Part shown: positions 1 to 45,250 of the stretch, one piece after another
Layout: each line of letters opens with the position of its first letter
How positions within the stretch are numbered: the first letter of the stretch is position 1
Source: Escherichia coli
GTDB taxonomy: Bacteria > Pseudomonadota > Gammaproteobacteria > Enterobacterales > Enterobacteriaceae
Assembly (NCBI RefSeq): GCF_003018255.1
Contig: NZ_CP027440.1
Length of the DNA: 64,000 nucleotides
Direction: 5' to 3' (one strand)
The notes under the pieces: model-generated
What the model saw: the letters and a program-made list of their open reading frames with translations, nothing else
Told to the model about the DNA's origin: nothing
Database searches by the model: none
Position numbers and translations under genes: made by a program

Positions 1-118
1 GGCCTCAACAGCATTGAATATGTTCACCAGCGCCAGTAACGCGGGTTACGGGAAAGAAGACGATAGCGCAGTTATCAAGATTTTCTCTGGCATCACCCTA
101 CCGGGAGCGAAATCATGA
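1..118 (+). CDS. 3' end of an upstream dehydrogenase gene (ygbJ-like), partial; start lies outside the window
   Basis: Open frame from the window edge ending at TGA 116-118, overlapping the ATG of the next gene (ATGA), which suggests operon coupling. Identity is inferred from conserved gene order only. Confidence 0.5.
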   Translation, partial: ASTALNMFTSASNAGYGKEDDSAVIKIFSGITLPGAKS

Positions 119-2012: not shown

Positions 2013-2016
2013 TGCA

Positions 2017-2793: not shown

Positions 2794-2881
2794 TTCGTTA
2801 AATCCCCAATTACAACGTACCCATACATCCCCCCATCTACGGATGGGGTAGGTTAACTATAACTTTCAGACAGGGTTTCCC

Positions 2882-4246: not shown

Positions 4247-4253
4247 CCTTAAT

Positions 4254-4281
4254 AAAAGGTCCGATGGGCATCGGACCTTTT
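4254..4281. terminator. bidirectional intrinsic terminator between ygbN (+) and the decarboxylase operon (-)
   Basis: Perfect inverted repeat AAAAGGTCCGATG/CATCGGACCTTTT, A-run before and T-run after, directly flanked by two convergent stop codons. Confidence 0.7.
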
Positions 4282-4283
4282 AT

Positions 4284-4520
4284 TTAGCGCTTACCTTCCG
4301 CCAGCAGCGGCGGGATGCTCGGCACCATCGGCGCGTCATCAATATCTTTCTGCGTCATGCGGAACGCTTCGGGATAATGTTCGCGGCTGGTGCGGCGTAG
4401 CGGTTCGGTATCGCGCCAGGTATAGAGGCAATGCTGGCACTGGTAGACCATCCAGACATCTTTTACCGGCGATTTCGCCATCACTTCAATCTGTTCATCG
4501 GCACAACGTGGACAAATCAT
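4284..4520 (-). CDS. ecdD: small zinc-ribbon subunit of a UbiD-type hydroxyarylic acid decarboxylase (EcdD/KpdD/BsdD-like)
   Basis: 78-aa ORF with CPRC...CQHC; immediately downstream of and co-oriented with the UbiD-like gene. Confidence 0.75.
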   Translation of the reverse strand: MICPRCADEQIEVMAKSPVKDVWMVYQCQHCLYTWRDTEPLRRTSREHYPEAFRMTQKDIDDAPMVPSIPPLLAEGKR

Positions 4521-4530
4521 CTTGTTCTCC

Positions 4531-5958: not shown

Positions 5959-6551
5959 TATTCATTCTCCTGAGAAAAATTCCGGGCCTGCGGCAATCCT
6001 TGCCAGCGCCTGGCGTGAGGATGTTCGAGGCCAAATTGATCCAGCACGCGGGCTACCACGTGGTGGACAATGTCATCTACCGTTTCGGGATGGTTATAAA
6101 AGGCAGGCATCGGCGGCACCATCGCCACGCCCATGCGCGAAAGTGCGAGCATATTTTCGAGATGGATTGTGCTAAGCGGCATTTCACGCGGCACCAGCAC
6201 CAGTTTGCGGCCTTCTTTGAGCACGACGTCCGCCGCGCGCCCCACCAGGCCATCGGCGTAACCAGCGCGGATACCGGCGAGCGTTTTCATACTGCATGGA
6301 ATAACGATCATGCCGTCGGTACGAAAGGAGCCGGAAGAGATAGTCGCCGCCTGATCCGCCGGGTTATGGCTGAAGTCTGCGAGGGCGGCAACATCGCGAG
6401 CGCTGTAAGGCGTTTCCAGTTCAATCGTGATTTTCGCCCACTTCGACATCACTAGATGAGTCTCGACATTCGGCATCTCCCGCAGCGCTTGCAGTAATGC
6501 CACACCAAGAGGCGCACCGGTAGCCCCTGTCATCCCGACGATCAGTTTCAT
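5958..6551 (-). CDS. ecdB: UbiX/Pad1-family flavin prenyltransferase (EcdB/KpdB-like)
   Basis: 197-aa ORF with MKLIVGMTGATGA flavoprotein motif; first gene of the three-gene minus-strand operon. Confidence 0.85.
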   Translation of the reverse strand: MKLIVGMTGATGAPLGVALLQALREMPNVETHLVMSKWAKITIELETPYSARDVAALADFSHNPADQAATISSGSFRTDGMIVIPCSMKTLAGIRAGYADGLVGRAADVVLKEGRKLVLVPREMPLSTIHLENMLALSRMGVAMVPPMPAFYNHPETVDDIVHHVVARVLDQFGLEHPHARRWQGLPQARNFSQENE

Positions 6552-6568
6552 TGCTTACTCTCTTAATT

Positions 6569-6582
6569 GTTCGTATACGAAC
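6569..6582. promoter_or_regulatory. 14-bp perfect palindrome GTTCGTATACGAAC in the divergent promoter region (candidate MarR-type operator)
   Basis: Perfect dyad about 18 nt upstream of the ecdB start codon, between the divergent MarR gene and the decarboxylase operon. Confidence 0.35.
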
Positions 6583-6697
6583 GTTATTATTAACATACTC
6601 CTTCATTTCCACAGCGGCAAGGATTGAAAAGTAACAACATCTTCTTCGTCACTGAAAAACCGCTATGATAGCGACAGAGAATTAGCCCGGAGTTTAC

Positions 6698-7105
6698 ATG
6701 GCGTTACGAAATAAAGCGTTCCATCAGTTACGACAGCTTTTTCAGCAGCATACAGCTCGCTGGCAGCACGAGTTACCTGACCTGACCAAACCACAGTACG
6801 CGGTGATGCGCGCCATTGCTGATAAGCCTGGTATCGAACAGGTGGCACTGATAGAAGCAGCAGTCAGCACCAAAGCAACGCTGGCAGAAATGTTGGCAAG
6901 AATGGAAAATCGTGGCTTAGTCAGACGTGAACATGACGCCGCTGACAAGCGGCGACGCTTTGTCTGGCTGACTGCCGAAGGAGAAAAGGTACTTGCTGCG
7001 GCGATCCCCATTGGTGACAGTGTGGATGAGGAATTTTTGGGGCGTTTGAGTGCAGAAGAGCAGGAGCTGTTTATGCAGTTGGTGCGCAAGATGATGAGCA
7101 AATAG
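6698..7105 (+). CDS. MarR/SlyA-family transcriptional regulator
   Basis: 135-aa ORF with winged-helix MarR pattern, divergent from the decarboxylase operon. Confidence 0.8.
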   Translation: MALRNKAFHQLRQLFQQHTARWQHELPDLTKPQYAVMRAIADKPGIEQVALIEAAVSTKATLAEMLARMENRGLVRREHDAADKRRRFVWLTAEGEKVLAAAIPIGDSVDEEFLGRLSAEEQELFMQLVRKMMSK

Positions 7106-7182
7106 GATGCTGATTGCCGGGTAGGACGCTGACGAGTCTTATCCAGGCGACAAAACACACCGACTTCCCAAACAAAAGAAAA

Positions 7183-7208
7183 AGGCCAGCCTCGCTTGAG
7201 ACTGGCCT
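7183..7208 (-). terminator. rpoS intrinsic terminator
   Basis: 11-bp stem (AGGCCAGCCTC/GAGACTGGCCT, one mismatch) followed on the minus strand by a U-rich tract, about 20 nt downstream of the rpoS stop. Confidence 0.65.
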
Positions 7209-7225
7209 TTCTGACAGATGCTTAC

Positions 7226-8218
7226 TTATTCGCGGAACAGCGCTTCGATATTCAGCCCCTGCGTTTGCAGGATTTCGCGCAAACGGCGCAGGCCTTCAAC
7301 CTGAATCTGGCGAACACGTTCACGGGTGAGGCCAATTTCACGACCTACATCTTCCAGTGTTGCCGCTTCGTACCCCAGCAAACCGAATCGACGTGCCAGT
7401 ACTTCACGCTGTTTGGCGTTCAGCTCGAACAGCCATTTGACGATGCTCTGCTTCATATCGTCATCTTGCGTGGTATCTTCCGGACCGTTCTCTTTTTCAT
7501 CGGCCAGGATGTCCAGCAACGCTTTTTCGGAATCACCACCCAGCGGGGTGTCTACCGAGGTAATGCGCTCGTTAAGACGAAGCATACGGCTGACGTCATC
7601 AACTGGCTTATCCAGTTGCTCTGCGATCTCTTCCGCACTTGGTTCGTGGTCCAGTTTATGGGACAACTCGCGTGCGGTTCGCAGGTAAACGTTCAGCTCC
7701 TTTACGATGTGAATAGGCAAACGAATAGTACGGGTTTGGTTCATAATCGCCCGTTCGATCGTCTGGCGAATCCACCAGGTTGCGTATGTTGAGAAGCGGA
7801 AACCACGTTCCGGGTCAAACTTCTCTACCGCGCGGATCAGCCCCAGGTTGCCCTCTTCGATCAGGTCCAGCAACGCCAGACCACGATTGCCATAACGGCG
7901 GGCAATTTTTACCACCAGACGCAAGTTACTCTCGATCATCCGGCGGCGGGAGGCAACATCTCCACGCAGTGCGCGACGCGCAAAATAAACTTCTTCTTCG
8001 GCCGTTAACAGTGGTGAATAACCAATCTCACCAAGGTAAAGCTGAGTCGCGTCCAGCACACGCTGTGTGGCTCCCTGCGATAACAGTTCCTCTTCGGCCA
8101 AATCGTTATCACTGGGTTCCTCTTCTACTAAGGCCTTTTCGTCAAAAACCTCAACTCCGTTCTCATCAAATTCCGCATCTTCATTTAAATCATGAACTTT
8201 CAGCGTATTCTGACTCAT
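7226..8218 (-). CDS. rpoS: RNA polymerase sigma factor sigma-S (sigma-38)
   Basis: ORF extends to 8254 but the start is placed at [17 protein letters not shown], giving 330 aa; sigma-70 family regions present; codon 33 is Glu, so no amber or truncating allele. Confidence 0.95.
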
Positions 8219-8280
8219 AAGGTGGCTCCTACCCGTGATCCCTTGACGGAACATTCAAGCAAAAGCCTGGTTCCGCCGAT

Positions 8281-9420
8281 TTATCGCTGCGGCAAATAAC
8301 GCAGCGGGTTTACGGATTTCCCCTTGTAACGAATTTCAAAATGCAAGCGTGTTGAACTGGTTCCGGTGCTACCCATGGTTGCTATTTTTTGCCCCGCCTT
8401 CACTTCTTGTTGTTCCCGGACCAGCATTGTGTCGTTATGGGCGTAGGCACTCAGGTAATCATCATTATGTTTGATGATAATCAGATTACCGTAGCCGCGC
8501 AGCGCGTTACCGGCATAAACAACGCGGCCATCTGCGGTCGCGATAATTGCCTGTCCTTTGCTGCCTGCGATATCAATCCCCTTGTTGCCCCCCTCAGAAG
8601 CGCCAAAGGTTTCGATCACTTTGCCCTCAGTCGGCCAGCGCCAGGTGGAGATAGGCGTACTGGTTGATGTACTGCTGACAGTCGGCTCGGTTGTGCTTGC
8701 TGTTGGTACCGTTACAGGCGCTGTGACCGTGGTCGCAGTTGGCTTGTTGTTCGGCAACATTTTGTTAGCACTCTGTTCACCCGAAGACTCAGAATACGTA
8801 ATTGTCGGTTGCGACGCAACAGCAACGGTGGAATTTTGTGCAGGCTTGATCACAACTCCTTGCTCTGCTGCGTCGGCCTGGGTAATGGCATTTCCGCCAG
8901 TGATTGGCGTACCGGAAGCATTACCCACCTGTAAGGTCTGACCGACGTTCAGCGCGTATGGTGCCTGAATATTGTTGCGCTGAGCAAGGTCACGGAAATC
9001 GTTGCCAGTAATCCAGGCGATATAGAAAAGTGTGTCGCCTTTTTTCACGGTATAGGTACTGCCGCTATAACTGCCTTTCGGAATGTTCCCATACTGACGG
9101 TTGTAGACGATGCGTCCGTTTTCCATCTGTACCGGCTGCTGAGCTACTGGCTGTACTGGCTGGATTTGCGGTTGTTGAGTAGCCTGAATTTGTGGCTGCT
9201 GTACCGGCTGAATTTGCGGTTGCTGCGCTGTAGACGTCGTCCCCATTTTCGGCGGCGGCGTAATCAACATACCAGAATTGGTATTTGCAGGCGCATTGCC
9301 ATTAACGGAGCTGACCGGTGCCGGTGGATTTGAAGTGTCAGAACAGCCTGCCAGCCATAGCGAAACCAGTGACAAAGCCGCAATGCGGCGAACGGTGAAT
9401 TTTGGGCTTCCCGCGCTCAT
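8281..9420 (-). CDS. nlpD: murein hydrolase activator lipoprotein NlpD (LysM plus M23 peptidase-like domains)
   Basis: 379-aa ORF with lipoprotein signal (LAGC), Q/P-rich repeats and a C-terminal M23 domain. From established knowledge, the main rpoS promoter lies inside this gene. Confidence 0.95.
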
Positions 9421-33380: not shown

Positions 33381-34652
33381 ATGGAAGACGACTGCGACAT
33401 TATTATTATTGGTGCCGGTATTGCAGGCACCGCTTGCGCGTTACGCTGCGCGCGAGCGGGTTTATCCGTTTTGTTACTGGAACGCGCTGAAATCCCCGGC
33501 AGCAAAAATCTTTCCGGCGGGCGGTTATATACCCATGCACTCGCGGAACTCCTCCCTCAGTTTCACCTGACCGCGCCTCTTGAACGACGCATCACTCACG
33601 AAAGCCTTTCCCTGTTAACGCCGGATGGCGCAACGACGTTTTCCAGCTTACAGCCCGGCGGTGAATCCTGGAGTGTATTACGTGCACGGTTCGATCCGTG
33701 GCTGGTTGCCGAAGCCGAAAAAGAAGGTGTCGAATGCATCCCCGGTGCGACGGTGGATGCGCTGTATGAAGAAAACGGCAGGGTGTGTGGTGTCATTTGT
33801 GGTGACGATATTCTCCGCGCCCGTTATGTGGTGCTGGCAGAAGGTGCCAACAGCGTCCTGGCTGAACGTCACGGGTTAGTGACTCGTCCTGCTGGCGAAG
33901 CGATGGCGTTGGGGATCAAAGAAGTGCTGTCGCTGGAAACATCCGCTATTGAAGAACGTTTTCATCTGGAGAATAACGAAGGCGCAGCGTTGCTGTTCAG
34001 CGGCGGGATCTGTGATGACTTACCCGGCGGCGCATTTCTTTATACTAATCAACAAACGCTCTCGTTAGGGATTGTTTGCCCGCTCTCTTCCCTTACGCAA
34101 AGTCGTGTTCCGGCAAGCGAGCTGCTGGCTCGCTTTAAAACGCATCCGGCAGTGCGCCCGCTTATCAAAAACACGGAATCACTGGAGTATGGTGCGCATC
34201 TGGTGCCAGAAGGTGGCTTGCACAGTATGCCGGTGCAATACGCCGGTAACGGCTGGCTGCTGCTGGGCGATGCGTTGCGCAGTTGCGTCAATACCGGAAT
34301 TTCCGTGCGCGGCATGGATATGGCGCTGACTGGCACGCAGGCGGCGGCACAAACGCTGATAAGCGCCTGCCAGCACCGCGAGCCGCAAAATCTGTTTGCG
34401 CTTTATCATCACAACGTAGAGCGCAGCCTGCTATGGGATGTTCTACAACGTTATCAGCATGTTCCGGCGCTTTTGCAACGCCCTGGATGGTACCGTGCGT
34501 GGCCTGCGTTAATGCAGGATATTTCCCGCGATTTATGGGATCAGGGTGATAAACCTGTTCCACCGCTGCGCCAGTTATTCTGGCGTCATTTACGTCGTCA
34601 CGGCCTGTGGCATCTGGCGGGCGATGTTATCAGGAGTCTGCGATGTCTGTAA
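33381..34652 (+). CDS. ygcN: FixC-like FAD-dependent oxidoreductase (electron-transfer-flavoprotein:quinone oxidoreductase family)
   Basis: Start at MEDDCDIIIIGAGIAGTA (FAD-binding GxGxxG), giving 423 aa. Confidence 0.85.
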   Translation: MEDDCDIIIIGAGIAGTACALRCARAGLSVLLLERAEIPGSKNLSGGRLYTHALAELLPQFHLTAPLERRITHESLSLLTPDGATTFSSLQPGGESWSVLRARFDPWLVAEAEKEGVECIPGATVDALYEENGRVCGVICGDDILRARYVVLAEGANSVLAERHGLVTRPAGEAMALGIKEVLSLETSAIEERFHLENNEGAALLFSGGICDDLPGGAFLYTNQQTLSLGIVCPLSSLTQSRVPASELLARFKTHPAVRPLIKNTESLEYGAHLVPEGGLHSMPVQYAGNGWLLLGDALRSCVNTGISVRGMDMALTGTQAAAQTLISACQHREPQNLFALYHHNVERSLLWDVLQRYQHVPALLQRPGWYRAWPALMQDISRDLWDQGDKPVPPLRQLFWRHLRRHGLWHLAGDVIRSLRCL

Positions 34653-34903
34653 CCCGTAATCTCTGGCGCGTTGCCGATGCGCCGCACATTGTACCGGCTG
34701 ACTCCGTTGAGCGTCAGACGGTACAACGGTTGATTAACGCTTGTCCGGCTGGTCTTTTTTCGCTCACACCGGAAGGTGACTTACGCGTTGATTATCGCGG
34801 CTGCCTGGAGTGTGGCACCTGCCGTTTGCTGTGCGATGAAAAAACACTACAACAGTGGCGCTATCCGCCTTCCGGATTCGGCATCACCTACCGTTTTGGA
34901 TAA
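34643..34903 (+). CDS. ygcO: FixX-like ferredoxin
   Basis: Start at MSVTRNLWRV, giving 86 aa; Cys cluster CLECGTCRLLC; overlaps the ygcN 3' end. Confidence 0.8.
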   Translation: MSVTRNLWRVADAPHIVPADSVERQTVQRLINACPAGLFSLTPEGDLRVDYRGCLECGTCRLLCDEKTLQQWRYPPSGFGITYRFG

Positions 34904-34919
34904 ATAATAAGGATAATTT

Positions 34920-35495
34920 ATGCCCCTCTTACACCTGCTCCGCCAGAATCCGGTGATTGCTGCCGTTAAAGATAATGCCAGCCTGCAACTGGCAATCGAC
35001 TCTGAATGCCAGTTTATTTCCGTGTTGTACGGCAATATCTGCACCATTAGTCAAATCGTTAAAAAGATTAAAAATGCCGGAAAATATGCTTTTATTCATG
35101 TTGATTTGCTGGAAGGCGCGTCAAATAAAGAAGTGGTGATTCAGTTTTTGAAACTGGTGACTGAGGCGGACGGCATTATCAGTACCAAAGCCTCAATGTT
35201 GAAAGCGGCAAGAGCGGAAGGTTTTTTCTGTATTCATCGCCTGTTTATTGTTGATTCGATTTCGTTTCACAACATTGATAAGCAAGTTGCGCAATCGAAT
35301 CCGGATTGTATTGAGATCCTGCCAGGCTGTATGCCTAAAGTGCTGGGCTGGGTGACGGAGAAAATCCGCCAACCGCTGATTGCCGGCGGGCTGGTGTGCG
35401 ATGAAGAAGATGCGCGTAATGCGATTAACGCGGGTGTTGTGGCGCTTTCCACCACGAATACCGGGGTCTGGACGTTAGCGAAAAAATTGCTTTGA
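34920..35495 (+). CDS. ygcP: GlpP-like glycerol-3-phosphate-responsive antiterminator family protein
   Basis: 191-aa ORF following ygcO with a short spacer. Confidence 0.8.
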   Translation: MPLLHLLRQNPVIAAVKDNASLQLAIDSECQFISVLYGNICTISQIVKKIKNAGKYAFIHVDLLEGASNKEVVIQFLKLVTEADGIISTKASMLKAARAEGFFCIHRLFIVDSISFHNIDKQVAQSNPDCIEILPGCMPKVLGWVTEKIRQPLIAGGLVCDEEDARNAINAGVVALSTTNTGVWTLAKKLL

Positions 35496-35519
35496 CGGGA
35501 TACTCGTAACGAGTTGAAT

Positions 35520-35640
35520 TTGTGTGATTTGTAGGCTGCACGCCACATCCGACATTCAGCGCCTGATACGACGCTTGACGCGTCTTATCAGGCTTACAAG
35601 TCCCCAGCCCAGAACCGTAGGCAGGATCATCCGGCAGCAC
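35520..35640. repeat. cluster of REP-type palindromic units (BIME-like)
   Basis: Contains CGCCTGATACGACGCTTGACGCGTCTTATCAGGCTTAC plus flanking imperfect REP-like palindromes between convergent ygcP and ygcQ. Confidence 0.7.
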
Positions 35641-35641
35641 G

Positions 35642-36502
35642 TTATTGGCAATCTGCGTGAATGGTTGTCACCAGTGCCTCCAGCACCGCTTTCCAGTCAT
35701 CAACCACGCCAACATCTGCCTGTGAAAATACCGCCGCGCTGGCGTCATGATTAATCGCCACCACAAACTTGCTATTGCGTACGCCCGCCATTAACGCTGC
35801 TGCGCCGGAAGCGCCAACAACAATGCACACCTCAGGCGCCAGCAGATGTCCGGAAATACCAATCACTTTTTCAGCATCAACGCCACCGTTCATCACTCGC
35901 GCCCGACTGTAGCCCACTTCGGCTCCCAGCTTTTCTACCAGCATAGCGATTTCCTGGTTATCTGCCTCTCCGCCCTGCCCCACCACCAGCACCCGTCTGG
36001 CTTCAGCTAATGGATCGCGGGTAACATTTTTCAGGTTTTCTATGCTAATCAGCCAGTCGGGAAGCGCACCGGGGACAATGTTCAGTTGCAGCATACCAGA
36101 GGGCAACATGGTGTTTATCTCTGCTCCCGCCTGACGCGCCAGGGAAAGACATAGCGGGCGTTTTTCTGTTTGCAGCGTCGCCGTTAGCGCATTTCCCCAG
36201 TGGGATTTGCGCACGCTTACGGTTGGAATATCTAACGAAGTCACCTGGCAGATGCTTGCACCATGTAAACGCCAGGCCAGCCGGATCGACAGTTCATCGC
36301 CAAACGCGCCCGGAGGAAAAAGGACAACCTCCGCAGGCGTTCGTTGCCACTGTTCCACCAGCGCATCCAGCACCTGTTCCGCAACCATCGGCTGTGGTTC
36401 TATTTGCCAATGCGTTAGTGTGCTGCCGCTGAAATCCTGCGCCGCCAGCCAGCCCGCCATTGCGGCATGTTCCTGATTTATTGTCACAATTGCGATATTC
36501 AT
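35642..36502 (-). CDS. ygcQ: electron transfer flavoprotein alpha-subunit homolog (FixB-like)
   Basis: Start at MNIAIVTINQEH, giving 286 aa; overlaps the ygcR 3' end. Confidence 0.85.
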   Translation of the reverse strand: MNIAIVTINQEHAAMAGWLAAQDFSGSTLTHWQIEPQPMVAEQVLDALVEQWQRTPAEVVLFPPGAFGDELSIRLAWRLHGASICQVTSLDIPTVSVRKSHWGNALTATLQTEKRPLCLSLARQAGAEINTMLPSGMLQLNIVPGALPDWLISIENLKNVTRDPLAEARRVLVVGQGGEADNQEIAMLVEKLGAEVGYSRARVMNGGVDAEKVIGISGHLLAPEVCIVVGASGAAALMAGVRNSKFVVAINHDASAAVFSQADVGVVDDWKAVLEALVTTIHADCQ

Positions 36503-37278
36503 GGCTGCATCCTTTGGCGTAAATAGTCCTGCCATAGCTTTTGCGCTTTTTCTGCTACCGTTTGCCCATCAATCAGCGCCGCTCTGCGTCGTTGCTCTGG
36601 CCTTGCCAGTTGCAGGCACTGTATCGCTGGCGCTTCCGCGGCAACAGTTTCGCGGGTAATCTCCGCTTTCCCCGCTGCCATTCGCTGGCGCATTCCCGGT
36701 ACTGGCAAGGCCACTTCACCACACTGACGCACGGCAATCACCGCAGGCAAGCGAACCCGGCAACAGCGCAACCCATGTTCAGTACGCTGTTCGAGGGTGA
36801 TAAACGGCGCGTCGAGAGTAAAACGCTCCACCTGGGTGAAACAGGGCCAGCCCAGCATTTCCGCCAGCAAAAATGGCGTTTGTCCATTCTGCCCTTCGCT
36901 GCTTTGGCAGCCGGTAATGATCAGATCCAGCGGATTCTGACGCTGCCATTCGGCAATATGGCGAGCGACAAATTCCGGCGCAAAGCGCAGATCTGCCGCC
37001 GTCTCCAGCAATACAGCGTCCTCAAACCCAAGAGCCATGAGATAGCGCAGCCAGTGCAACGCCCGTTCATCCCCCATGCTCAACGCGGTTAAAGACATCG
37101 GCGTACCGTTTTTTCTCTGCGCCAACAGCAGCGCGGCGGCAGCCTGTTCATCGGCACCGAGTAAACTTCGCAGAAGCGAAACATCCGGTCCGATATTACC
37201 CTGAGCCGCCGCCTGCCACTCTTTTTCCGCCAGCATTCCGGCATCCGGTTCGGCTTTAAACGCTAACAGAATGTTCAT
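36499..37278 (-). CDS. ygcR: electron transfer flavoprotein beta-subunit homolog (FixA-like)
   Basis: Start at MNILLAFKAEPDAG, giving 259 aa. Confidence 0.85.
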   Translation of the reverse strand: MNILLAFKAEPDAGMLAEKEWQAAAQGNIGPDVSLLRSLLGADEQAAAALLLAQRKNGTPMSLTALSMGDERALHWLRYLMALGFEDAVLLETAADLRFAPEFVARHIAEWQRQNPLDLIITGCQSSEGQNGQTPFLLAEMLGWPCFTQVERFTLDAPFITLEQRTEHGLRCCRVRLPAVIAVRQCGEVALPVPGMRQRMAAGKAEITRETVAAEAPAIQCLQLARPEQRRRAALIDGQTVAEKAQKLWQDYLRQRMQP

Positions 37279-38593
37279 TCGCACCTCCTACATTTCCCGC
37301 CGCCACCAGCGGGAGTGCTTTGGTTTCTGGTGCCCATAGCCAGGTCACAACAAAACCAACCAACAACACTACCGCCAGGAGCAATAAGGTGGCTTGCATT
37401 CCCCACTGCGCCAGCACCCACGGCAGCAGGCCAGTACTTACCGCCGCCCCCAACCGACTCATGGCGGTGGCAAAACCGACGCCCAGCGAGCGAATGTCAG
37501 TAGGAAAACTTTCCGCAGGCAAAATGCCCACCAGATTACTGACTGCCGAAATGGTGGTGCTGAAGAGAACAAAAAGCAGCAGCGTTAATGAACTGCCGGA
37601 AGGCAAACAGGCCATCACGACCAGCGTTGCCGCCAGCAGCAAAAAACTTCCCAGTAAAAATCTGCGATGCGCTAACAAGTGGGTCAACACTAACCCTAAT
37701 AACGCGCCAACAATTAACAACGCATTAAGCATCAGGCTGGCAGTCAGCGCATCTTCCAGACCAATAGTTTGGGCGATGGTCGGCAGCCAGGTATAAATCA
37801 CAAACCATGGGATTACGAGGCAGACAAAGAAGACGCTGTTAAACGCTGTGCGCCGCCAGTAGCGCGAAGAGAACAAGGTTTTGATGTGTTTATGGGTCGC
37901 CGTTGCCACTTCATCGCCCAGTAAAACATGGGGACCAAAATAGCGATGCACGATAGCGTGAGCTTCTGCAAAACGCCCCTGGCGCAGTAGCCAGCGTGGC
38001 GATTCTGGCGTTCCCCAGCGTAATAACGTAATCAACAATGCGGGCAGAGCTGCCGATGCCAGTAGCCAGCGCCAGGCCTCCGGGCTTTCGCTAATAAAGT
38101 GATGTCCGGCAATACTTGCCAGCACATAGCCTACGGTCCACACCACGCTGAATGCGCCCAGCAAAACACCGCGATGGCGGCGCGGAGAAAATTCAGCCAG
38201 CAAAGTGTGACCGACTGAGTAATCGCCTCCCAGACCAATGCCGATCAAAATGCGCAGTCCAATAAGATGCTCTGGCGTGGTGGCAAAAAATTGTAAGAAC
38301 GAAGCGAGCGTAATCAGCAAAAAGCTGAAGGTGAAGATTTTTTGCCGACCAATATGGTCGGAGATCCACCCCAAAACCAGGCTACCGATAAACAGGCCAA
38401 GTAGCGCCGAGCCGCCGATCATTCCCGCCATAAACGGCGTCAGTTGCATGGCGGGTGTAAGCTGAATAATGGCGTAACCAATGACGCCGAGGACATAACC
38501 GTCGGTCAGGTGTGCGCCGAAAGTGAGCGCAGCAATGCGGCAGTGAAAACGGTTAAGTGGTAAATCATCCATTCGCACCGGTGAAGTGTTCAT
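37256..38593 (-). CDS. ygcS: MFS transporter (sugar/metabolite:H+ symporter family)
   Basis: Start at MNTSPVRMDDLPLNRFHCRIAAL, giving 445 aa; 12-TM hydrophobic pattern. Confidence 0.85.
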   Translation of the reverse strand: MNTSPVRMDDLPLNRFHCRIAALTFGAHLTDGYVLGVIGYAIIQLTPAMQLTPFMAGMIGGSALLGLFIGSLVLGWISDHIGRQKIFTFSFLLITLASFLQFFATTPEHLIGLRILIGIGLGGDYSVGHTLLAEFSPRRHRGVLLGAFSVVWTVGYVLASIAGHHFISESPEAWRWLLASAALPALLITLLRWGTPESPRWLLRQGRFAEAHAIVHRYFGPHVLLGDEVATATHKHIKTLFSSRYWRRTAFNSVFFVCLVIPWFVIYTWLPTIAQTIGLEDALTASLMLNALLIVGALLGLVLTHLLAHRRFLLGSFLLLAATLVVMACLPSGSSLTLLLFVLFSTTISAVSNLVGILPAESFPTDIRSLGVGFATAMSRLGAAVSTGLLPWVLAQWGMQATLLLLAVVLLVGFVVTWLWAPETKALPLVAAGNVGGANEHSVSV

Positions 38594-38686
38594 CTTTACC
38601 CCTTCATTGTCCGGTAATAAGAACGGCTTCTCGCCTGAGAAGCCGAAAAGGCAACGCCCCGTCATCGCGGAACGCTGCCTGACACA

Positions 38687-40141
38687 TTATTTTTCAATCG
38701 GATAGATAGTACCCGTATTCATAATGCCGTTAGGATCGAACTGCTTTTTCAGCCCTTCCAGCAACGCCCACGCGCTGCCGTGTTCCAGTTTGCTCCAGTG
38801 AACGCGATGTTTACCGATACCGTGGTGGTGCACCATCGAACCACCGAGGCGAATGGTTTCTTCGCAGATGATTTTGTTGAGCGGATTGTGGTACTTGTCG
38901 ATTTCCTCTTCCGGCTTACAGTCAACGACGTTGTAGTCGTAGACGAAGTACATGTTGGTGCCGTTCTGATAGCTATGAGAGGAGTGACCGCCCAGCATGG
39001 TGATGTCGTCGGCATGCGGGAACTCGGTACGAATACGGTTAATAACGCTTTCGTAGATTTCGTGGATGCAGCTCCAGCAGCCGGACACTTCGGTGGTAAA
39101 GCCCATGTTGCCGGTTTTGAGGATCTGCACACGTTCAGCGGCCACTTTATCCGGCCCCCAGTTCAGGTGATTAAACCAGGTTTCGATCAGCTTGCTGTCC
39201 ACTCGCTGGCATTGCGGGTAACGTGCCACGATTTCAGCAATCCCTTCGCCTGTCGCCTTCGCAATGCGAGGGTTACCTTCAGCCATAAAGATCAGCACAC
39301 ATTTACCATCGGCAAAATGGGTGAAGTGTTGGGTGCCATCTTCAGCGTCATACAAACGAGCGATCGACGGACGATACCCTTCCACCATGATTTCACGCAG
39401 GATGTTGAAGCCGGTTTTCATGTCTTCCAGCACATAGCCATAGAAGAGATTGTTTTCCGGCGTAAATTTGAAGATTTTCACTGTGACTTCAGTGATATAG
39501 CACAATGCACCTTCGTTGCCGATGATAATGTGACGAATGTCCGGGCCTGCCGCGCGGCGTGGTACGTTTTTAATACGTGTGACGGTGCCATCAGCCAATA
39601 CTGCTTCCAGACCAACGACCATATCTTCGATTGCGCCGTAGAGTGTGGAGAACTGCCCGATACTGCGGGTTGCTACCAGGCCGCCCATCTGCGCCAGCGG
39701 TTTTGATTGCGGTGAATGCCCCGTGGTGTAACCTTTTTCACGCAACGTGTTTTCCAGCACCTCCAGCGGAACACCACATTGCGCCGTGACCTGCATATTC
39801 TCAATATCAATATTAATGATTTGATTCATGGCAGAGCCGTCGAGCACCACCGAGTTTTCCACAACGGTTTCCAGTCCACCCTCGGTAGCGGAAGCACCGG
39901 TACGCGGCACACCGTTAATTTTGTGTGCATTCATAAAATTCAGTACACGAGAGACTTGTTCTGTGGAACCGAGTTTTACGACCGCTGCCGGAATCGGCAA
40001 AGTATAAATGCCATGAATATCCGGAAATTTGCGAAAACGGTCAATACTGTTTTTCTTTAATACTGTTTCATCGGTAATTACGCGATCTGCACCAACAATT
40101 TCCTTTAGCTGGTCGACAATCGCTGCGCGAGATAAAGACAT
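38687..40141 (-). CDS. ygcU: FAD-linked oxidase (alkyl-DHAP-synthase/glycolate-oxidase-like)
   Basis: 484-aa ORF with N-terminus MSLSRAAIVDQLKEIVGADRVITDE (FAD-binding PCMH type). Confidence 0.85.
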   Translation of the reverse strand: MSLSRAAIVDQLKEIVGADRVITDETVLKKNSIDRFRKFPDIHGIYTLPIPAAVVKLGSTEQVSRVLNFMNAHKINGVPRTGASATEGGLETVVENSVVLDGSAMNQIINIDIENMQVTAQCGVPLEVLENTLREKGYTTGHSPQSKPLAQMGGLVATRSIGQFSTLYGAIEDMVVGLEAVLADGTVTRIKNVPRRAAGPDIRHIIIGNEGALCYITEVTVKIFKFTPENNLFYGYVLEDMKTGFNILREIMVEGYRPSIARLYDAEDGTQHFTHFADGKCVLIFMAEGNPRIAKATGEGIAEIVARYPQCQRVDSKLIETWFNHLNWGPDKVAAERVQILKTGNMGFTTEVSGCWSCIHEIYESVINRIRTEFPHADDITMLGGHSSHSYQNGTNMYFVYDYNVVDCKPEEEIDKYHNPLNKIICEETIRLGGSMVHHHGIGKHRVHWSKLEHGSAWALLEGLKKQFDPNGIMNTGTIYPIEK

Positions 40142-40210
40142 AGTAATTCCTTCCTGATAATAAAAATGGAATAATCATTAATAAGAGAAAACAGAAACCA
40201 CCGTTATGGA

Positions 40211-40996
40211 TTAGCGCACTAAATAACCGCCATCGACCACTAATAAATGCCCGTTGACATAATTCGATGCCTGACTTGCGAGAAACACGGCTGCGCCCAT
40301 TAAATCCTGAGTATCGCCCCAACGGTTTGCCGGAATATGATCAAGAACGCGCTGATTGGTTTCTGGATTACTGCGTGTCGCCAGCGTAATATCTGTTGCA
40401 TAATAGCCAGGGGCAATACCATTTACCTGAATATTATATTGACCTAGTTCATCACAATAAGCTTTGGTGAACCCGGCAAGAGCATGTTTAGTGGCAGAAT
40501 ATGCAGGTGACCATTGTCCACCTAAGTAAGAGAACAATGAACAGATATTAATAATTTTACCGCTTTTCTGCGGGATCATAATTTTTGCCGCTTCATAGCT
40601 TAACTCGAATGCGGCGGTCAGGTTCACATCAATCATCGGGTCCCAGTCGGCACGACCGAAATCCAGCACCTTATTCAGCTTACAAATACCGGCATTGTTA
40701 ACCAGAATATCAACTGTTCCGAAACGCTCACAGCAAGCAGCGATAATCTTCTGCGGCGCGCCTTCTGCGGTGATATCCACCTGCATGAAGTCCATCTCAA
40801 CACCCTGTTTTTCAATCATTTCCTTTGTTTTGCCGTTATCTTTAACGAAGCTTGGAATAAAGATATTTGCACCAGCTTTGGCCAGCGCCATGGCAAATGC
40901 CTGGCCTAAACCGCTATTCCCGCCGGTAACAATTGCGGTTTTACCTTTCAGGGAGAAAAAATCCATTGAGAACGCATTGAGAGATTCGATTGACAT
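40211..40996 (-). CDS. ygcW: short-chain dehydrogenase/reductase (SDR)
   Basis: Start at MSIESLNAF with GGAG ribosome-binding site, giving 261 aa; TGxxxGxG motif (IVTGGNSGLG). The longer ORF to 41071 is just the translated terminator hairpin. Confidence 0.9.
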   Translation of the reverse strand: MSIESLNAFSMDFFSLKGKTAIVTGGNSGLGQAFAMALAKAGANIFIPSFVKDNGKTKEMIEKQGVEMDFMQVDITAEGAPQKIIAACCERFGTVDILVNNAGICKLNKVLDFGRADWDPMIDVNLTAAFELSYEAAKIMIPQKSGKIINICSLFSYLGGQWSPAYSATKHALAGFTKAYCDELGQYNIQVNGIAPGYYATDITLATRSNPETNQRVLDHIPANRWGDTQDLMGAAVFLASQASNYVNGHLLVVDGGYLVR

Positions 40997-41020
40997 AGTT
41001 AGCTCCAATTTCCGTAAGGC

Positions 41021-41067
41021 AAAAAAAAAGAAAGGTAACTTCCCCCGCGAGAGGGAAGTTACCTTTC
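41021..41067 (-). terminator. strong intrinsic terminator-like hairpin about 30 nt upstream of the ygcW start codon
   Basis: Perfect 15-bp stem GAAAGGTAACTTCCC/GGGAAGTTACCTTTC with an 8-nt loop, followed on the minus strand by T9. Confidence 0.6.
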
Positions 41068-41314
41068 TCATTATCTCTGGTAACTGGAGATAATTTTTAT
41101 CATAAGGGCATAATCGCTAATGTGATCGTAATCACAGTGTTATATTCGAATTGTCAAATAATTTTAAAAAGCAGAAGCGTGATTACTCTCACACAACACC
41201 ACTGCTTTCCATGTTATTTCTTATTGCAATTACTAGAGACCTGAGAAAAGTAATCCACCTGAAAGGGCGGCTTACTTTTCTCTTTTTTTTGTCTATTACA
41301 AATGGGAATACGAT

Positions 41315-42592
41315 ATGCAACACAACTCATATCGCCGTTGGATAACCCTCGCGATAATTAGTTTTAGCGGCGGCGTTAGTTTCGATCTGGCTTATTTACG
41401 TTATATTTATCAAATTCCCATGGCGAAATTTATGGGATTCAGCAATACCGAGATAGGTTTAATAATGAGTACCTTTGGTATTGCGGCTATTATTCTTTAT
41501 GCCCCCAGCGGCGTTATTGCCGATAAATTTTCACACCGCAAAATGATTACTTCCGCGATGATCATTACCGGATTACTGGGTCTGTTAATGGCAACATATC
41601 CACCGCTGTGGGTAATGCTCTGTATTCAGGTCGCCTTTGCGATAACGACGATTTTAATGCTGTGGTCGGTGTCGATTAAAGCCGCCTCATTGCTGGGCGA
41701 TCATAGTGAGCAAGGGAAAATTATGGGCTGGATGGAAGGGCTGCGCGGCGTCGGTGTAATGTCGCTGGCGGTGTTTACCATGTGGGTCTTTTCTCGCTTT
41801 GCGCCGGATGACAGCGCCAGCCTGAAAACAGTCATTATTATCTACAGTGTGGTTTACATCTTGTTGGGGATTCTGTGCTGGTTTTTTGTTAGCGATAACA
41901 ACAACCTGCGCAGTACCAATAACGAAGAAAAACAGTCATTCCAGCTTAGCGATATCCTGGCCGTTTTGCGTATCAGTACCACCTGGTATTGCAGCATGGT
42001 GATTTTTGGTGTCTTCACCATCTACGCCATTCTGAGTTACTCCACCAACTATCTGACCGAAATGTACGGCATGTCGCTGGTGGCGGCGAGCTACATGGGG
42101 ATTGTGATCAACAAAATCTTCCGCGCGCTGTGCGGCCCACTTGGCGGCATTATCACCACCTACAGTAAAGTGAAATCCCCTACCCGCGTGATCCAAATCC
42201 TTTCCGTACTCGGCCTGCTGGCGTTAACTGCCCTGCTCGTCACGAACTCTAACCCGCAATCGGTCGCGATGGGGATTGGCCTGATTTTACTGCTGGGATT
42301 CACCTGTTACGCCTCACGCGGGCTGTACTGGGCCTGCCCAGGCGAAGCGAGAACACCGTCTTACATTATGGGCACCACGGTAGGTATTTGTTCGGTGATT
42401 GGATTCCTGCCGGATGTCTTCGTTTACCCAATTATCGGCCACTGGCAAGACACCCTGCCCGCAGCAGAAGCCTACCGCAATATGTGGCTGATGGGCATGG
42501 CGGCGCTTGGCATGGTGATTGTCTTTACCTTTTTGCTGTTCCAAAAAATTCGTACTGCTGATAGCGCCCCCGCAATGGCTAGCAGCAAGTAA
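41315..42592 (+). CDS. yqcE: MFS transporter
   Basis: 425-aa hydrophobic ORF divergent from ygcW. Confidence 0.85.
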   Translation: MQHNSYRRWITLAIISFSGGVSFDLAYLRYIYQIPMAKFMGFSNTEIGLIMSTFGIAAIILYAPSGVIADKFSHRKMITSAMIITGLLGLLMATYPPLWVMLCIQVAFAITTILMLWSVSIKAASLLGDHSEQGKIMGWMEGLRGVGVMSLAVFTMWVFSRFAPDDSASLKTVIIIYSVVYILLGILCWFFVSDNNNLRSTNNEEKQSFQLSDILAVLRISTTWYCSMVIFGVFTIYAILSYSTNYLTEMYGMSLVAASYMGIVINKIFRALCGPLGGIITTYSKVKSPTRVIQILSVLGLLALTALLVTNSNPQSVAMGIGLILLLGFTCYASRGLYWACPGEARTPSYIMGTTVGICSVIGFLPDVFVYPIIGHWQDTLPAAEAYRNMWLMGMAALGMVIVFTFLLFQKIRTADSAPAMASSK

Positions 42593-42618
42593 GCCAGGAA
42601 AATTACAGGAGAAAAATC

Positions 42619-44097
42619 ATGTCGAAAAAATACATCATAGGGATTGATGGCGGAAGTCAGAGCACAAAAGTGGTGATGTACGATCTGGAAGGTAATGTGG
42701 TTTGCGAAGGTAAAGGCTTATTGCAGCCGATGCATACGCCAGATGCCGATACTGCCGAACATCCTGACGACGATTTATGGACATCGTTATGCTTTGCCGG
42801 TCACGATTTGATGAGCCAGTTTGCCGGAAATAAAGAAGATATTGTCGGTATTGGTCTGGGCTCCATCCGTTGCTGTCGTGCGTTATTGAAAGCCGATGGC
42901 ACGCCCGCTGCGCCATTGATTAGCTGGCAGGATGCACGTGTAACACGTCCCTACGATCATACCAATCCAGATGTGGCCTATGTCACCTCTTTTTCGGGTT
43001 ATCTGACGCATCGCTTAACCGGCGAGTTTAAAGATAATATCGCCAACTATTTTGGTCAGTGGCCGGTGGATTATAAGAGCTGGACATGGAGTGAAGATGC
43101 TGCGGTAATGGATAAGTTTAATATCCCCCGTCATATGCTGTTTGATGTGCAAATGCCTGGCACCATTCTTGGGCATATCACACCACAAGCTGCGCTGGCG
43201 ACACATTTCCCGGCTGGGCTGTCGGTTGTTTGTACCACCAGTGATAAACCGGTAGAAGCTCTGGGAGCCGGGTTACTGGATGATGAAACTGCGGTAATTT
43301 CTCTTGGCACTTACATCGCATTGATGATGAACGGCAAAGCCTTGCCGAAAGATCCGGTGGCGTACTGGCCGATTATGTCTTCTATTCCGCAAACATTGCT
43401 GTATGAAGGTTACGGTATTCGCAAAGGCATGTGGACGGTGAGCTGGCTGCGCGACATGTTAGGCGAGTCGTTAATTCAGGATGCCAGGGCGCAGGATCTT
43501 TCACCGGAAGATTTACTCAACAAGAAAGCCTCTAGTGTGCCACCTGGCTGTAATGGGCTGATGACGGTGCTGGACTGGCTGACCAATCCGTGGGAACCGT
43601 ACAAACGCGGGATTATGATCGGCTTTGATTCCAGTATGGATTACGCATGGATATATCGTTCGATACTGGAAAGCGTGGCGCTGACGCTGAAGAACAATTA
43701 CGACAATATGTGTAATGAAATGAATCACTTTGCGAAGCATGTAATCATTACTGGCGGCGGTTCGAACAGCGATCTGTTTATGCAGATTTTTGCCGACGTG
43801 TTCAACCTTCCGGCACGACGTAACGCCATTAACGGTTGTGCAAGTCTGGGGGCAGCGATTAATACCGCGGTAGGTCTGGGGCTATACCCGGATTACGCAA
43901 CGGCTGTCGACAAAATGATTCGCGTGAAAGATATCTTTATACCGATTGAGAGCAATGCCAAACGCTACGACGCGATGAATAAAGGCATTTTCAAAGACCT
44001 AACCAAACATACTGATGTGATCCTGAAAAAATCGTATGAAGTGATGCATGGGGAATTGGGGAATGCGGATTCGATCCAGAGCTGGTCGAATGCGTAA
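42619..44097 (+). CDS. ygcE: FGGY-family carbohydrate kinase
   Basis: 492-aa ORF with N-terminus MSKKYIIGIDGGSQSTKVVMYD (sugar kinase ATPase fold). Confidence 0.85.
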   Translation: MSKKYIIGIDGGSQSTKVVMYDLEGNVVCEGKGLLQPMHTPDADTAEHPDDDLWTSLCFAGHDLMSQFAGNKEDIVGIGLGSIRCCRALLKADGTPAAPLISWQDARVTRPYDHTNPDVAYVTSFSGYLTHRLTGEFKDNIANYFGQWPVDYKSWTWSEDAAVMDKFNIPRHMLFDVQMPGTILGHITPQAALATHFPAGLSVVCTTSDKPVEALGAGLLDDETAVISLGTYIALMMNGKALPKDPVAYWPIMSSIPQTLLYEGYGIRKGMWTVSWLRDMLGESLIQDARAQDLSPEDLLNKKASSVPPGCNGLMTVLDWLTNPWEPYKRGIMIGFDSSMDYAWIYRSILESVALTLKNNYDNMCNEMNHFAKHVIITGGGSNSDLFMQIFADVFNLPARRNAINGCASLGAAINTAVGLGLYPDYATAVDKMIRVKDIFIPIESNAKRYDAMNKGIFKDLTKHTDVILKKSYEVMHGELGNADSIQSWSNA

Positions 44098-44735: not shown

Positions 44736-45069
44736 TGGTTTATCCCCGCAGGCGCGGGGAACTCATAGAGAAAAGAAACGGCAGCTTTGCCACTTCCGGT
44801 TTATCCCCGCTGGCGCGGGGAACTCCGCGTTTCTAATCTCACCGCCACGGCGATCAACGGTTTATCCCCGCTGGCGCGGGGAACTCACCCCTTTAACGTC
44901 ACCAGACCGCTAACGACGCGGTTTATCCCCGCTGGCGCGGGGAACTCGCGTAACCATTTTGATGGCGCTACCGAAATGGCGGTTTATCCCCGCTGGCGCG
45001 GGGAACTCGATCAACGGCCTGGCGGCTGCCTCTGAAATCTCGGTTTATCCCCGCTGGCGCGGGGAACTC
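44736..45069 (-). CRISPR. orphan type I-E CRISPR array: 6 repeats, 5 spacers of 32 nt
   Basis: Same repeat as the cas-adjacent array at a 61-nt period; the leader-distal repeat is a variant (TGGTTTATCCCCGCAGGCGCGGGGAACTC). Confidence 0.97.
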
Positions 45070-45250
45070 TCTAAACATAACCTATTATTAATTAATGATT
45101 TTTTAAGCCAGTCACAATCTACCAACTTTACAGTATCACACAAACAACACATCCATTATGTTAAAGAGCACTTAATCCATTGATTAAAAAGCTAAATATT
45201 TAAAATAACTCTATACAAACTAAAATCTACCAAACTTCGCCGCAATAATT
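45070..45250 (-). promoter_or_regulatory. leader of the orphan CRISPR array
   Basis: AT-rich sequence abutting the last repeat, beginning TCTAAACATAACC, which parallels the TCTAAAAGTATAC start of the cas-adjacent leader. Confidence 0.6.

Follow-up and report, generated by a model that had tools for sequence, protein, structure and literature searches.

The ygc cluster of Escherichia coli is a long-known set of genes to which no function has been assigned. In this study, we report a computational analysis of this cluster in a 64,000-nt stretch of E. coli DNA (contig NZ_CP027440.1, hereafter the window), in which it occupies positions 33381-44097, and we lean, with somewhat better than even confidence, towards the view that it forms a regulon built like the glycerol (glp) regulon and serving a glycerol-like compound that carries an organic cation, and not a plain sugar acid. 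Three observations are new: a leader RNA that precedes two of the operons and is linked to the regulator YgcP, an active site in the flavoenzyme YgcU that appears to be of the alkyl-dihydroxyacetone phosphate synthase (ADPS) type, and a tie, seen across phyla, between the cluster and genes for quaternary-amine uptake and demethylation.

The cluster comprises ten intact open reading frames (ORFs) of the annotated lengths, matching RefSeq ygcN, ygcO, ygcP, ygcQ, ygcR, ygcS, ygcU, ygcW, yqcE and ygcE, in three transcription units, ygcN-ygcO-ygcP (+), ygcW-ygcU-ygcS-ygcR-ygcQ (-) and yqcE-ygcE (+). A first-pass annotation of this DNA had listed FixC-like, FixX-like and GlpP-like proteins, electron transfer flavoprotein (ETF) alpha and beta subunits, two major facilitator superfamily (MFS) transporters, an FAD-linked oxidase, a short-chain dehydrogenase/reductase (SDR) and an FGGY kinase; this inventory proved correct by Pfam and NCBIfam profile searches, which bore out the family labels of all the ygc proteins. 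The curated cut-off of a function-naming NCBIfam family was reached by none of the ten proteins, YgcW coming nearest, so that no specific function can be read from annotation. The full text of PubMed Central, 7.7 million papers, and bioRxiv, searched with all ten gene names, also yielded no assignment of a substrate or function, in agreement with the first-pass statement that the substrate is undefined. Besides the papers on CRP sites, YgcS and ygcU cited here, the names brought up just promoter screens. A paper of March 2026 still lists ygcU just as 'FAD-binding oxidoreductase' and reports it as negative in a D-serine test (PMC13012123). Of 5426 complete E. coli genomes, 5417 have the ygc stretch, in every case on the chromosome, and 5060 of them cover at least 80% of it. 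An origin of the window from an Escherichia other than E. coli was considered and rejected, its identity being 98.6% to one E. coli strain and 92-94% to the divergent Escherichia loci.

The 318-bp intergenic region between the divergent genes ygcW and yqcE was found by a terminator scan and folding to hold two intrinsic terminators. On the ygcW strand (41069..41028) a 19-bp hairpin is followed by nine U (-35.2 kcal/mol, z -7.3), and on the yqcE strand (~41243..41282, +) a hairpin of 11 bp or more is followed by eight U (-22.3 kcal/mol, z -4.0); both stop about 25 nt (25-35 nt) upstream of the start codons of ygcW and yqcE. The two leaders are alike in sequence (GAGAAAGGTAAC and GAGAAAAGTAAT), with a consensus that consists of RTTACY, AGAG, 3-4 nt, GAGAAAAGTAAY, an inner hairpin, TGCTTTTCTC and a U-run. 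The AGTAAY portion of the terminator 5' arm and the upstream RTTACY box are reverse complements, and the antiterminator and terminator helices that can be drawn are therefore mutually exclusive.

When 57 leaders were aligned, the antiterminator helix (columns 3-9 with 30-36) was 95.7% paired, and pairing fell to 15-70% when the partners were shifted by one to three columns. One antiterminator pair was G-C in 40 leaders, A-U in 17 and unpaired in none. Changes in column 30 were matched in both helices, at its antiterminator partner (U-A 45, C-G 8) and at its terminator partner (A-U 48, G-C 9), a double covariation that is, on the evidence of the alignment, the signature of mutually exclusive helices. 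Folding gave the antiterminator helix alone about -1.4 kcal/mol, so weak that termination would be the default and a factor would be needed to prevent it. The leaders (41021-41290) had no match in Rfam 15 with E up to 1, and no RefSeq annotated feature lies over them. The ygcW leader has in addition a 6-bp 5' hairpin, UAUCUC/GAGAUA (41050-41092, -), which holds the GUUACC antiterminator box in its loop and might tune the switch.

By BLAST, the yqcE leader was at least 99% identical to that of the window in 5000 E. coli genomes, whereas for the whole cluster the identity with the window was 95-99% in nearly all genomes, which argues that the non-coding leader is under stronger constraint than the genes. 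About 360 E. coli genomes were without the leader or without full coverage of the cluster. No second leader locus was found in E. coli, BLAST giving one place per genome at a sensitivity limited by the 65-nt query.

A covariance model (R1) was built from the alignment of 57 leaders and searched against 87 loci. It scored 74.7 bits (E 3e-12) on the ygcW leader and 66.1 bits (E 2e-10) on the yqcE leader; exactly two full copies occur in the window, and two per enterobacterial locus. Of the 45 loci outside the enterobacteria, 21 encode YgcP and all 21 carry the leader motif, which the other 24, without YgcP, do not have (Fisher 2.6e-13), and this co-occurrence points to antitermination of the GlpP type, added to two sites for the cAMP receptor protein (CRP). 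In a pattern search, copies of the motif preceded the W gene 50 times, yqcE 38 times, BCCT genes 6 times, the U gene 5 times and an MttB gene once; the copies before BCCT and MttB genes suggest that betaine-type transporters and a methyltransferase operon lie within the same regulon. The leader also stands before the W gene in Photobacterium, Halobacillus, Thalassobacillus, Virgibacillus, Geosporobacter, Sporomusa, Cohnella and several Clostridia.

YgcP itself matched the Pfam profile G3P_antiterm (PF04309) from end to end with 210.6 bits, and its relatives in the Protein Data Bank (PDB), 3kts and 1vkf, are both named glycerol uptake operon antiterminator proteins. Its orthologs form a clade of their own, with 54-62% identity across phyla and just about 100 bits to the PDB GlpP-like protein. 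The possibility that YgcP is an enzyme instead of a regulator was rejected on account of its perfect co-occurrence with the leader RNA. Of the hallmarks of a GlpP-type system, four are found here: a PF04309 regulator, leader terminators, an antiterminator that excludes them, and co-occurrence of RNA and regulator.

Of the two CRP sites between ygcW and yqcE, the one at 41121-41136 had been predicted by PhyloScan (PMC1794230), and an in vitro footprint put its Kd at an estimated ~1.7 nM (PMC12871828); yqcE-ygcE is listed as Crp-activated (PMC8085971). Regulation through the CRP sites, the terminator leaders and their alternative pairing is, as a prediction from these comparisons, well supported. 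Co-regulation of the cluster, which the first-pass reading implied, is borne out for ygcWUSRQ and yqcE-ygcE, with their common CRP sites and leader RNA, but not for ygcNOP, which has no such leader.

The second line of evidence concerns YgcU. Its best matches in the PDB were to ADPS (140 bits), with lower scores for glycolate oxidase (96 bits) and LctD (84 bits). YgcU R262 aligns with ADPS Arg419/352, the position that is His in PDB 4bc7; Y398 aligns with Tyr578/508, the position that is Phe in PDB 4bca; H438-H440 align with the HHH loop, and TGHSPQS of YgcU faces TGHEPDS of ADPS. R262, Y398 and the HHH loop were invariant in a 12-sequence alignment and kept in 85-87 of 87 orthologs. All 87 have HHHG, while the neighbouring second oxidase of other phyla usually has (T/G/S)EHG. 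According to a review, Arg352 and Tyr508 (Dictyostelium numbering), shown by mutagenesis to be essential, are required for catalysis by ADPS (PMC3509576), and the residue numbers of that paper fit the aligned positions after a three-residue numbering offset. The Tyr is the likely base that takes the pro-R hydrogen at C1 of the dihydroxyacetone phosphate (DHAP) moiety, and the carbanion then adds to flavin N5 (PMC3509576). On the GlcD model TIGR00387, whose cut-off is 567.9 bits, YgcU scored 142.6, and it does not have the EHG motif at its C-terminal end. As far as the alignments go, YgcU carries the catalytic Arg, the catalytic Tyr and the HHH loop of the ADPS type, not the motif of the GlcD type. 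These residues suggest that its substrate is a phosphorylated DHAP-like ketone, which YgcW (the SDR) and YgcE (the kinase) would probably supply.

YgcU has 484 aa, against 584-658 in ADPS. The alignment starts at YgcU 51-60, corresponding to ADPS residue 138 (Dictyostelium) or 215 (guinea pig), and some 85 to 155 residues of the ADPS N-terminal region are without a counterpart. This makes a long-chain lipid substrate seem unlikely; YgcU would be ADPS-like in mechanism, yet not an ADPS. The identity of YgcU between E. coli and Bacillota, Desulfobacterota, SAR324 and Actinomycetota is 65-73%. A metagenome-assembled genome labelled Planctomycetota (L009, JADFMM010000147.1) encodes a YgcU 99% identical to that of E. 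coli, most likely as E. coli contamination of the assembled genome.

The third line comes from the cluster in other bacteria. The comparison used 80 loci, one genome per species, and six annotated contigs, in which ORFs were called and clustered. In 88 loci, the core was made up of the FAD enzyme U (86), the SDR W (80), the FGGY kinase E (76), the ETF beta and ETF alpha genes, placed after ygcU (59-64), and YgcP (57-59). Genes ygcN, ygcO and ygcS stand next to the core in the Enterobacterales only, an order whose loci have no BCCT gene; carriers of the cluster there include strains of Serratia, Pantoea, Klebsiella and Rahnella. ETF genes are missing from some Serratia, Erwinia, Pantoea and SAR324 loci, which have added the aldehyde dehydrogenase-like, aldo-keto reductase and Fae-family genes described below. 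A second oxidase directly follows the ETF genes in 23 of 45 non-enterobacterial loci, often with a second ETF pair behind it; the second ETF alpha of Photobacterium, the sole Pfam-annotated example, has a faint match to a ferredoxin domain.

Among these 45 non-enterobacterial loci, 16 have one or two BCCT genes beside the core and eight an OpuC-type ABC system, whose binding protein is nearest ProX, OpuCC, OpuBC and related quaternary-amine binders. Halobacillus halophilus, Photobacterium gaetbulicola and Geosporobacter ferrireducens are among the bacteria with the BCCT form. MttB-family genes occur in nine; one reaches 414 bits when compared with MtgB, the glycine betaine methyltransferase, and that of Desulfobacula sits with a corrinoid protein and a pterin methyltransferase. 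Some of the BCCT and MttB genes lie directly behind a ygc-type leader. This neighbourhood, while not proof, would fit a plain sugar-acid pathway badly.

Several loci have unusual company. In metagenome-assembled genomes of Bacillota/Syntrophomonadaceae, one locus (L070, 12425-14030) has the leader directly before an operon with an MttB-family methyltransferase, a ketopantoate-hydroxymethyltransferase-like protein, an OpuC-type ABC transporter and a proline-racemase-family protein; two others (L068, L072) have this type of MttB operon too, but the leader motif was not found before it. In Alkalihalobacillus oceani (L002, 600-11443), the stretch before the core codes for an OpuAC binding protein, an aspartase/fumarase-family lyase, one aldehyde and one Zn-alcohol dehydrogenase and a BCCT transporter, a set that could, speculatively, oxidise a released betaine alcohol and eliminate its amine. 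A variant cluster of Erwinia, Serratia and SAR324 (L032, L043, L044, L046, L047, L048; ~1-9000 in each) is without ETF, N and O genes and adds an aldehyde dehydrogenase-like protein (not in SAR324, L048), an aldo-keto reductase and a Fae-family protein, with a LysR regulator as well in the enterobacterial loci. The Pfam Aldedh match of this aldehyde dehydrogenase-like family (c23) rests on the Alkalihalobacillus oceani member. Homologs of Fae, which has the fold of the formaldehyde-activating enzyme, are unexpected in Enterobacterales.

The remaining enzymes and transporters of the E. coli cluster were compared with curated families. YgcW scored 348.9 bits on the KduD model NF005390 (cut-off 369) and 275.5 on TIGR01832 (cut-off 338.85), and so fails the curated cut-off for KduD, the 2-dehydro-3-deoxy-D-gluconate 5-dehydrogenase; its gene adjoins ygcU in 80 of 88 loci. 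YgcE has the Pfam domains FGGY_N and FGGY_C, scores far under the NCBIfam cut-offs for XylB (141 bits) and LsrK (136 bits), and has LsrK as its best PDB match (104 bits). In YgcE (42619-44097), just positions 1-104 of the 245 in the FGGY_N profile were matched, other kinase models aligning from residue ~120 onward, and its N-terminal domain appears to have lost or remodelled some 35-50 residues.

The best PDB sequence relatives of YgcS were OCT1, the carnitine carrier OCTN2 and OCT2 (80-84 bits), before the sugar porters GlcP and XylE; it matches the NCBIfam organic-cation transporter family TIGR00898 with 135 bits and also Pfam Sugar_tr. Overexpression of YgcS, picked as a distant NiaP homolog, has been reported to raise titres of nicotinamide mononucleotide (PMC8601175). 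YqcE belongs to MFS_1, with weak similarity to the D-galactonate transporter family TIGR00893, and no PDB relative was found for it by sequence. Its gene is paired with ygcE in Enterobacterales, as is an MFS_1 gene with the FGGY kinase in Photobacterium.

A dedicated electron-transfer branch, as suggested in the first-pass annotation, is present: Pfam and NCBIfam identify both ETF and ETF:quinone-oxidoreductase genes. YgcN scored 380 bits on NF007450 and 365.6 on the FixC model NF007542 (cut-off 610), both below the cut-offs, and above the cut-off for the Pfam domain ETFQO_UQ-bd (PF21162, 30.6 bits against 27.7). YgcO scored 82.5 bits on the FixX model NF011993 (cut-off 166) and had no Pfam match. 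YgcQ matched Pfam ETF_alpha with 61 bits and ETF alpha models with about 61-68 bits, against cut-offs of 528-549, and YgcR matched Pfam ETF with 62 bits. As predicted from these matches, YgcR, YgcQ, YgcN and YgcO make up a module of the FixABCX type, ETF together with ETF:quinone oxidoreductase; falling under the curated cut-offs, they are to be classed as paralogs of the Fix proteins and not as Fix proper. Electron flow toward quinone is plausible. FixABC are reported to rise on carnitine and are predicted electron donors for its reduction (PMC12482172), and by this precedent the electron flow in ygc could also run the opposite way.

The Bacillus glp regulon combines a transporter with an FGGY kinase, a flavin enzyme and a GlpP-type antiterminator. 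Set beside this plan, to which ygc would add a Fix-like electron branch of its own, these results suggest the following scheme. The two divergent promoters would stand under the common cAMP-CRP sites, each transcript terminating by default in its leader. YgcP, loaded with the phosphorylated intermediate from YgcE, may bind the GA-rich stretch and hold the antiterminator helix, whereupon RNA polymerase would read into ygcWUSRQ and yqcE-ygcE. A small glycerol-like diol, probably with an organic cation such as a trimethylammonium-containing group, would enter through YgcS and/or YqcE. YgcW would oxidise its secondary alcohol and YgcE phosphorylate the neighbouring primary alcohol, in either order, to give a DHAP-like compound substituted at C1. 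We infer such an intermediate from the combination of an SDR of the penultimate-alcohol type, a kinase of the ketose/glycerol type and a site for X-CH2-CO-CH2-O-phosphate. YgcU would then deprotonate C1, flavin N5 chemistry would remove or transform the substituent, and electrons would pass by way of ETF (YgcRQ) and YgcN/YgcO to the quinone pool.

Several points weigh against this scheme. The E. coli cluster itself has no BCCT, OpuC or MttB gene, and encodes no aldolase, lyase or phosphatase that would finish the pathway. YgcS resembles SLC22 carriers only modestly (84 bits), and it has a likeness to aromatic-acid and sugar porters as well. Halophilic Bacillaceae and some Serratia and Erwinia loci have no ETF genes. 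No leader was found upstream of ygcN, in the operon that encodes YgcP, by either the pattern or the covariance model. The covariation counts are raised by shared ancestry, and just two or three positions of the helices vary. An AlphaFold model of YgcU, made from the 12-sequence alignment, was discarded as too poor, with a mean pLDDT of 66 and FAD-binding segments under 50. ADPS chemistry, moreover, is redox-neutral (PMC3509576), so that the linkage of YgcU with ETF needs an extra assumption. One option, by analogy with nitroalkane oxidase, is a flavin adduct that would collapse to an oxidised product; alternatively, YgcU might be a dehydrogenase whose substrate is the corresponding glycerol-3-phosphate analogue.

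The first-pass annotation had taken the cluster for one that handles a sugar acid or polyol. Oxidation of some ordinary carbohydrate, either neutral or acidic (such as a sugar acid or alditol), with YgcU as a GlcD-like hydroxy-acid or alcohol dehydrogenase that passes electrons to ETF and quinone, would agree with the nearness of YgcW to KduD and gluconate 5-dehydrogenase (348.9 against 369), with YgcE as an FGGY sugar kinase, with the weak likeness of YqcE to the D-galactonate family, with the Sugar_tr match of YgcS, and with CRP control, which is typical for sugar catabolism. However, YgcU has the HHHG, Tyr398 and Arg262 of ADPS and no EHG, and reaches just 143 of the 568 bits required for GlcD; YgcS is nearer to organic-cation carriers than to sugar porters; and in orthologous clusters it is betaine-type transporters and MttB that stand behind the same leader, not sugar transporters. 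With the BCCT, OpuC and MttB neighbours seen elsewhere, the ADPS-type residues and the SLC22-like YgcS leave the sugar-acid or polyol interpretation poorly supported, and we regard it as unlikely. A reductive system like cai/fix, in which quinol or NADH would supply YgcN/O and YgcRQ with electrons for YgcU to cleave or reduce the DHAP-like intermediate (for example with release of an amine), as an anaerobic electron sink, also appears improbable to us. YgcNORQ are paralogs of FixCXAB, FixABC reportedly rise on carnitine and are predicted donors for its reduction (PMC12482172), and strict anaerobes add a second GlcD-type oxidase and a ferredoxin-fused ETF, LctBCD-like, that might act as a donor. 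Against this, aerobic halophilic Bacillaceae retain W-E-U without any ETF genes, CRP activation and the kinase suggest carbon catabolism, and the sequence does not fix the direction of electron flow.

That the cluster is a decaying remnant in E. coli, without current function and with ordinary terminators for leaders, we hold to be very improbable. The literature searched gives no phenotype or inducing condition, and the approximately 360 genomes without the leader or full cluster coverage would agree with decay, but the ten ORFs are intact, the cluster persists in 5417 of 5426 genomes, the yqcE leader is more conserved than the cluster around it (at least 99% in 5000 genomes, against 95-99%), and the leader motif and its link with ygcP are conserved across phyla.

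The glp-like regulon for a cationic glycerol analogue, which we favour, could be part of something larger. A bolder and rather doubtful extension is that ygc is the E. coli form of a widespread, unrecognised pathway that degrades glycerol-linked quaternary-ammonium compounds under a new class of GlpP-type riboregulator, present also in Gram-negatives and spread over Enterobacterales, Desulfobacterales, SAR324, halophilic Bacillaceae, Clostridia and Actinomycetota. The ADPS-like flavoenzyme of such a pathway would break the C1 bond of a DHAP-like intermediate and pass the electrons to a dedicated ETF; its candidate substrates would be molecules like glycerophosphocholine, the head group that betaine lipids leave on deacylation, or a trimethylammonio-propanediol. 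In PubMed Central full text and bioRxiv, no paper was found that describes a ygc-type cluster through combinations of MttB, BCCT, FGGY and ETF, and nothing relevant was found on the catabolism of betaine-lipid head groups. A paper on quaternary amines in Citrobacter was rejected as a description of ygc, as it deals with cai/fix.

Ten genes that are core to E. coli have been without a function for almost thirty years, and there are now leads that can be tested: the RNA element with its regulator, a C1-substituted DHAP for YgcU, and organic cations with a glycerol-like diol. If the proposal is right, ADPS-type flavin chemistry would have its first catabolic role in bacteria, and Enterobacteria their first demonstrated antitermination system of the GlpP type; there would also be a new route of quaternary-amine turnover in gut, marine and hypersaline microbes, with a bearing on choline, betaine and trimethylamine metabolism.

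Table 1. Genes and regulatory elements of the ygc cluster, with positions in the window
Feature	Position	Strand or placement	Description
ygcN	33381..34652	+	FixC-like FAD-dependent ETF:quinone oxidoreductase, 423 aa
ygcO	34643..34903	+	FixX-like ferredoxin, 86 aa; 10-nt overlap with ygcN
ygcP	34920..35495	+	GlpP-family (PF04309) putative RNA-binding antiterminator, 191 aa
ygcQ	35642..36502	-	ETF alpha subunit, 286 aa; last gene of ygcWUSRQ; 4-nt overlap with ygcR
ygcR	36499..37278	-	ETF beta subunit, 259 aa
ygcS	37256..38665	-	MFS transporter nearest SLC22 organic-cation/carnitine carriers, 469 aa
ygcU	38687..40141	-	FAD enzyme with predicted alkyl-DHAP-synthase-type active site, 484 aa
ygcW	40211..40996	-	SDR oxidoreductase like KduD/gluconate 5-dehydrogenase, 261 aa; first gene of the operon
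ygcW leader RNA	41021..41087	-	GTTACC box, GA-rich linker, intrinsic terminator (stem 41069..41028), U-run
CRP site TGTGATCGTAATCACA	41121..41136	between divergent promoters	exact palindrome match
Second CRP-like site CGTGATTACTCTCACA	41178..41193	yqcE side	one mismatch
yqcE leader RNA	41226..41290	+	ATTACT box, GA-rich linker, intrinsic terminator, U-run
yqcE	41315..42592	+	MFS_1 transporter, 425 aa
ygcE	42619..44097	+	FGGY-family kinase without assigned specificity, 492 aa

The cluster is flanked by cysJ and queD on one side and by a CRISPR array and queE on the other. The array, of type I-E, lies at 44797-45077 between ygcE and queE, the place that it has in annotated E. coli genomes too, and consists of about five copies of the repeat CGGTTTATCCCCGCTGGCGCGGGGAACTC with a 61-bp period. 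In the gap between the convergent genes ygcP and ygcQ (35512-35594), a weak Rfam match to naRNA4 was seen (29.5 bits, E 0.057, under the gathering score), which is probably a repetitive extragenic palindromic (REP)-type repeat.

Of the known systems, the glp regulon of Bacillus subtilis is alike in having a PF04309 regulator, an FGGY kinase that makes a phosphorylated compound, and a flavin enzyme that acts on that compound. There, GlpP with glycerol-3-phosphate relieves leader terminators at glpD, glpFK and glpTQ (PMC9604022, PMC10573289). The terminators lie just downstream of the promoters in both systems, and a GA-rich stretch abuts the terminator 5' arm; the glpD 5' untranslated region (PMC9604022, Table S4), when inspected by eye and folded, shows a comparable arrangement in which a GA-rich run leads into the 5' arm. 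The ygc system differs in the sequence of its leader, RTTACY...GAGAAAAGTAAY, in a flavin enzyme that appears ADPS-like and ETF-linked and is not GlpD, in the added SDR, and in a range that includes Proteobacteria.

With ADPS/AGPS (PDB 4bby, 2uuu), the ether-lipid enzyme that replaces an acyl group by a fatty alcohol at C1 of DHAP, YgcU has in common the FAD_binding_4 and FAD-oxidase_C fold family, the motif TGH(S/E)P(Q/D)S, the catalytic Arg, the catalytic Tyr and the HHHG loop, but it is tied genetically to ETF and lies in a catabolic operon. E. coli FixABCX, which accompanies caiTABCDE, is similarly a four-gene set of ETF beta and alpha, a FixC-like and a FixX-like protein devoted to one pathway, and that pathway handles a quaternary amine, carnitine. 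The partner in ygc is, however, an ADPS-like flavoprotein and not an acyl-CoA dehydrogenase, and the genes are spread over two operons. In LctBCD, the lactate dehydrogenase-ETF complex of Acetobacterium woodii (PDB 7qh2), a GlcD-family flavoenzyme stands next to its own EtfB and EtfA, an arrangement close to the second oxidase-ETF module of the non-enterobacterial clusters. That module is not present in E. coli, and YgcU itself is without the GlcD-type motif. In the erythritol pathway of Brucella, the FGGY kinase EryA acts first and the FAD dehydrogenase EryB then oxidises the polyol phosphate and feeds the electrons into the respiratory chain. EryB is a member of the GlpD family, and the Brucella pathway has sugar-type transporters and is without ETF, a GlpP-type regulator or an SDR first step.

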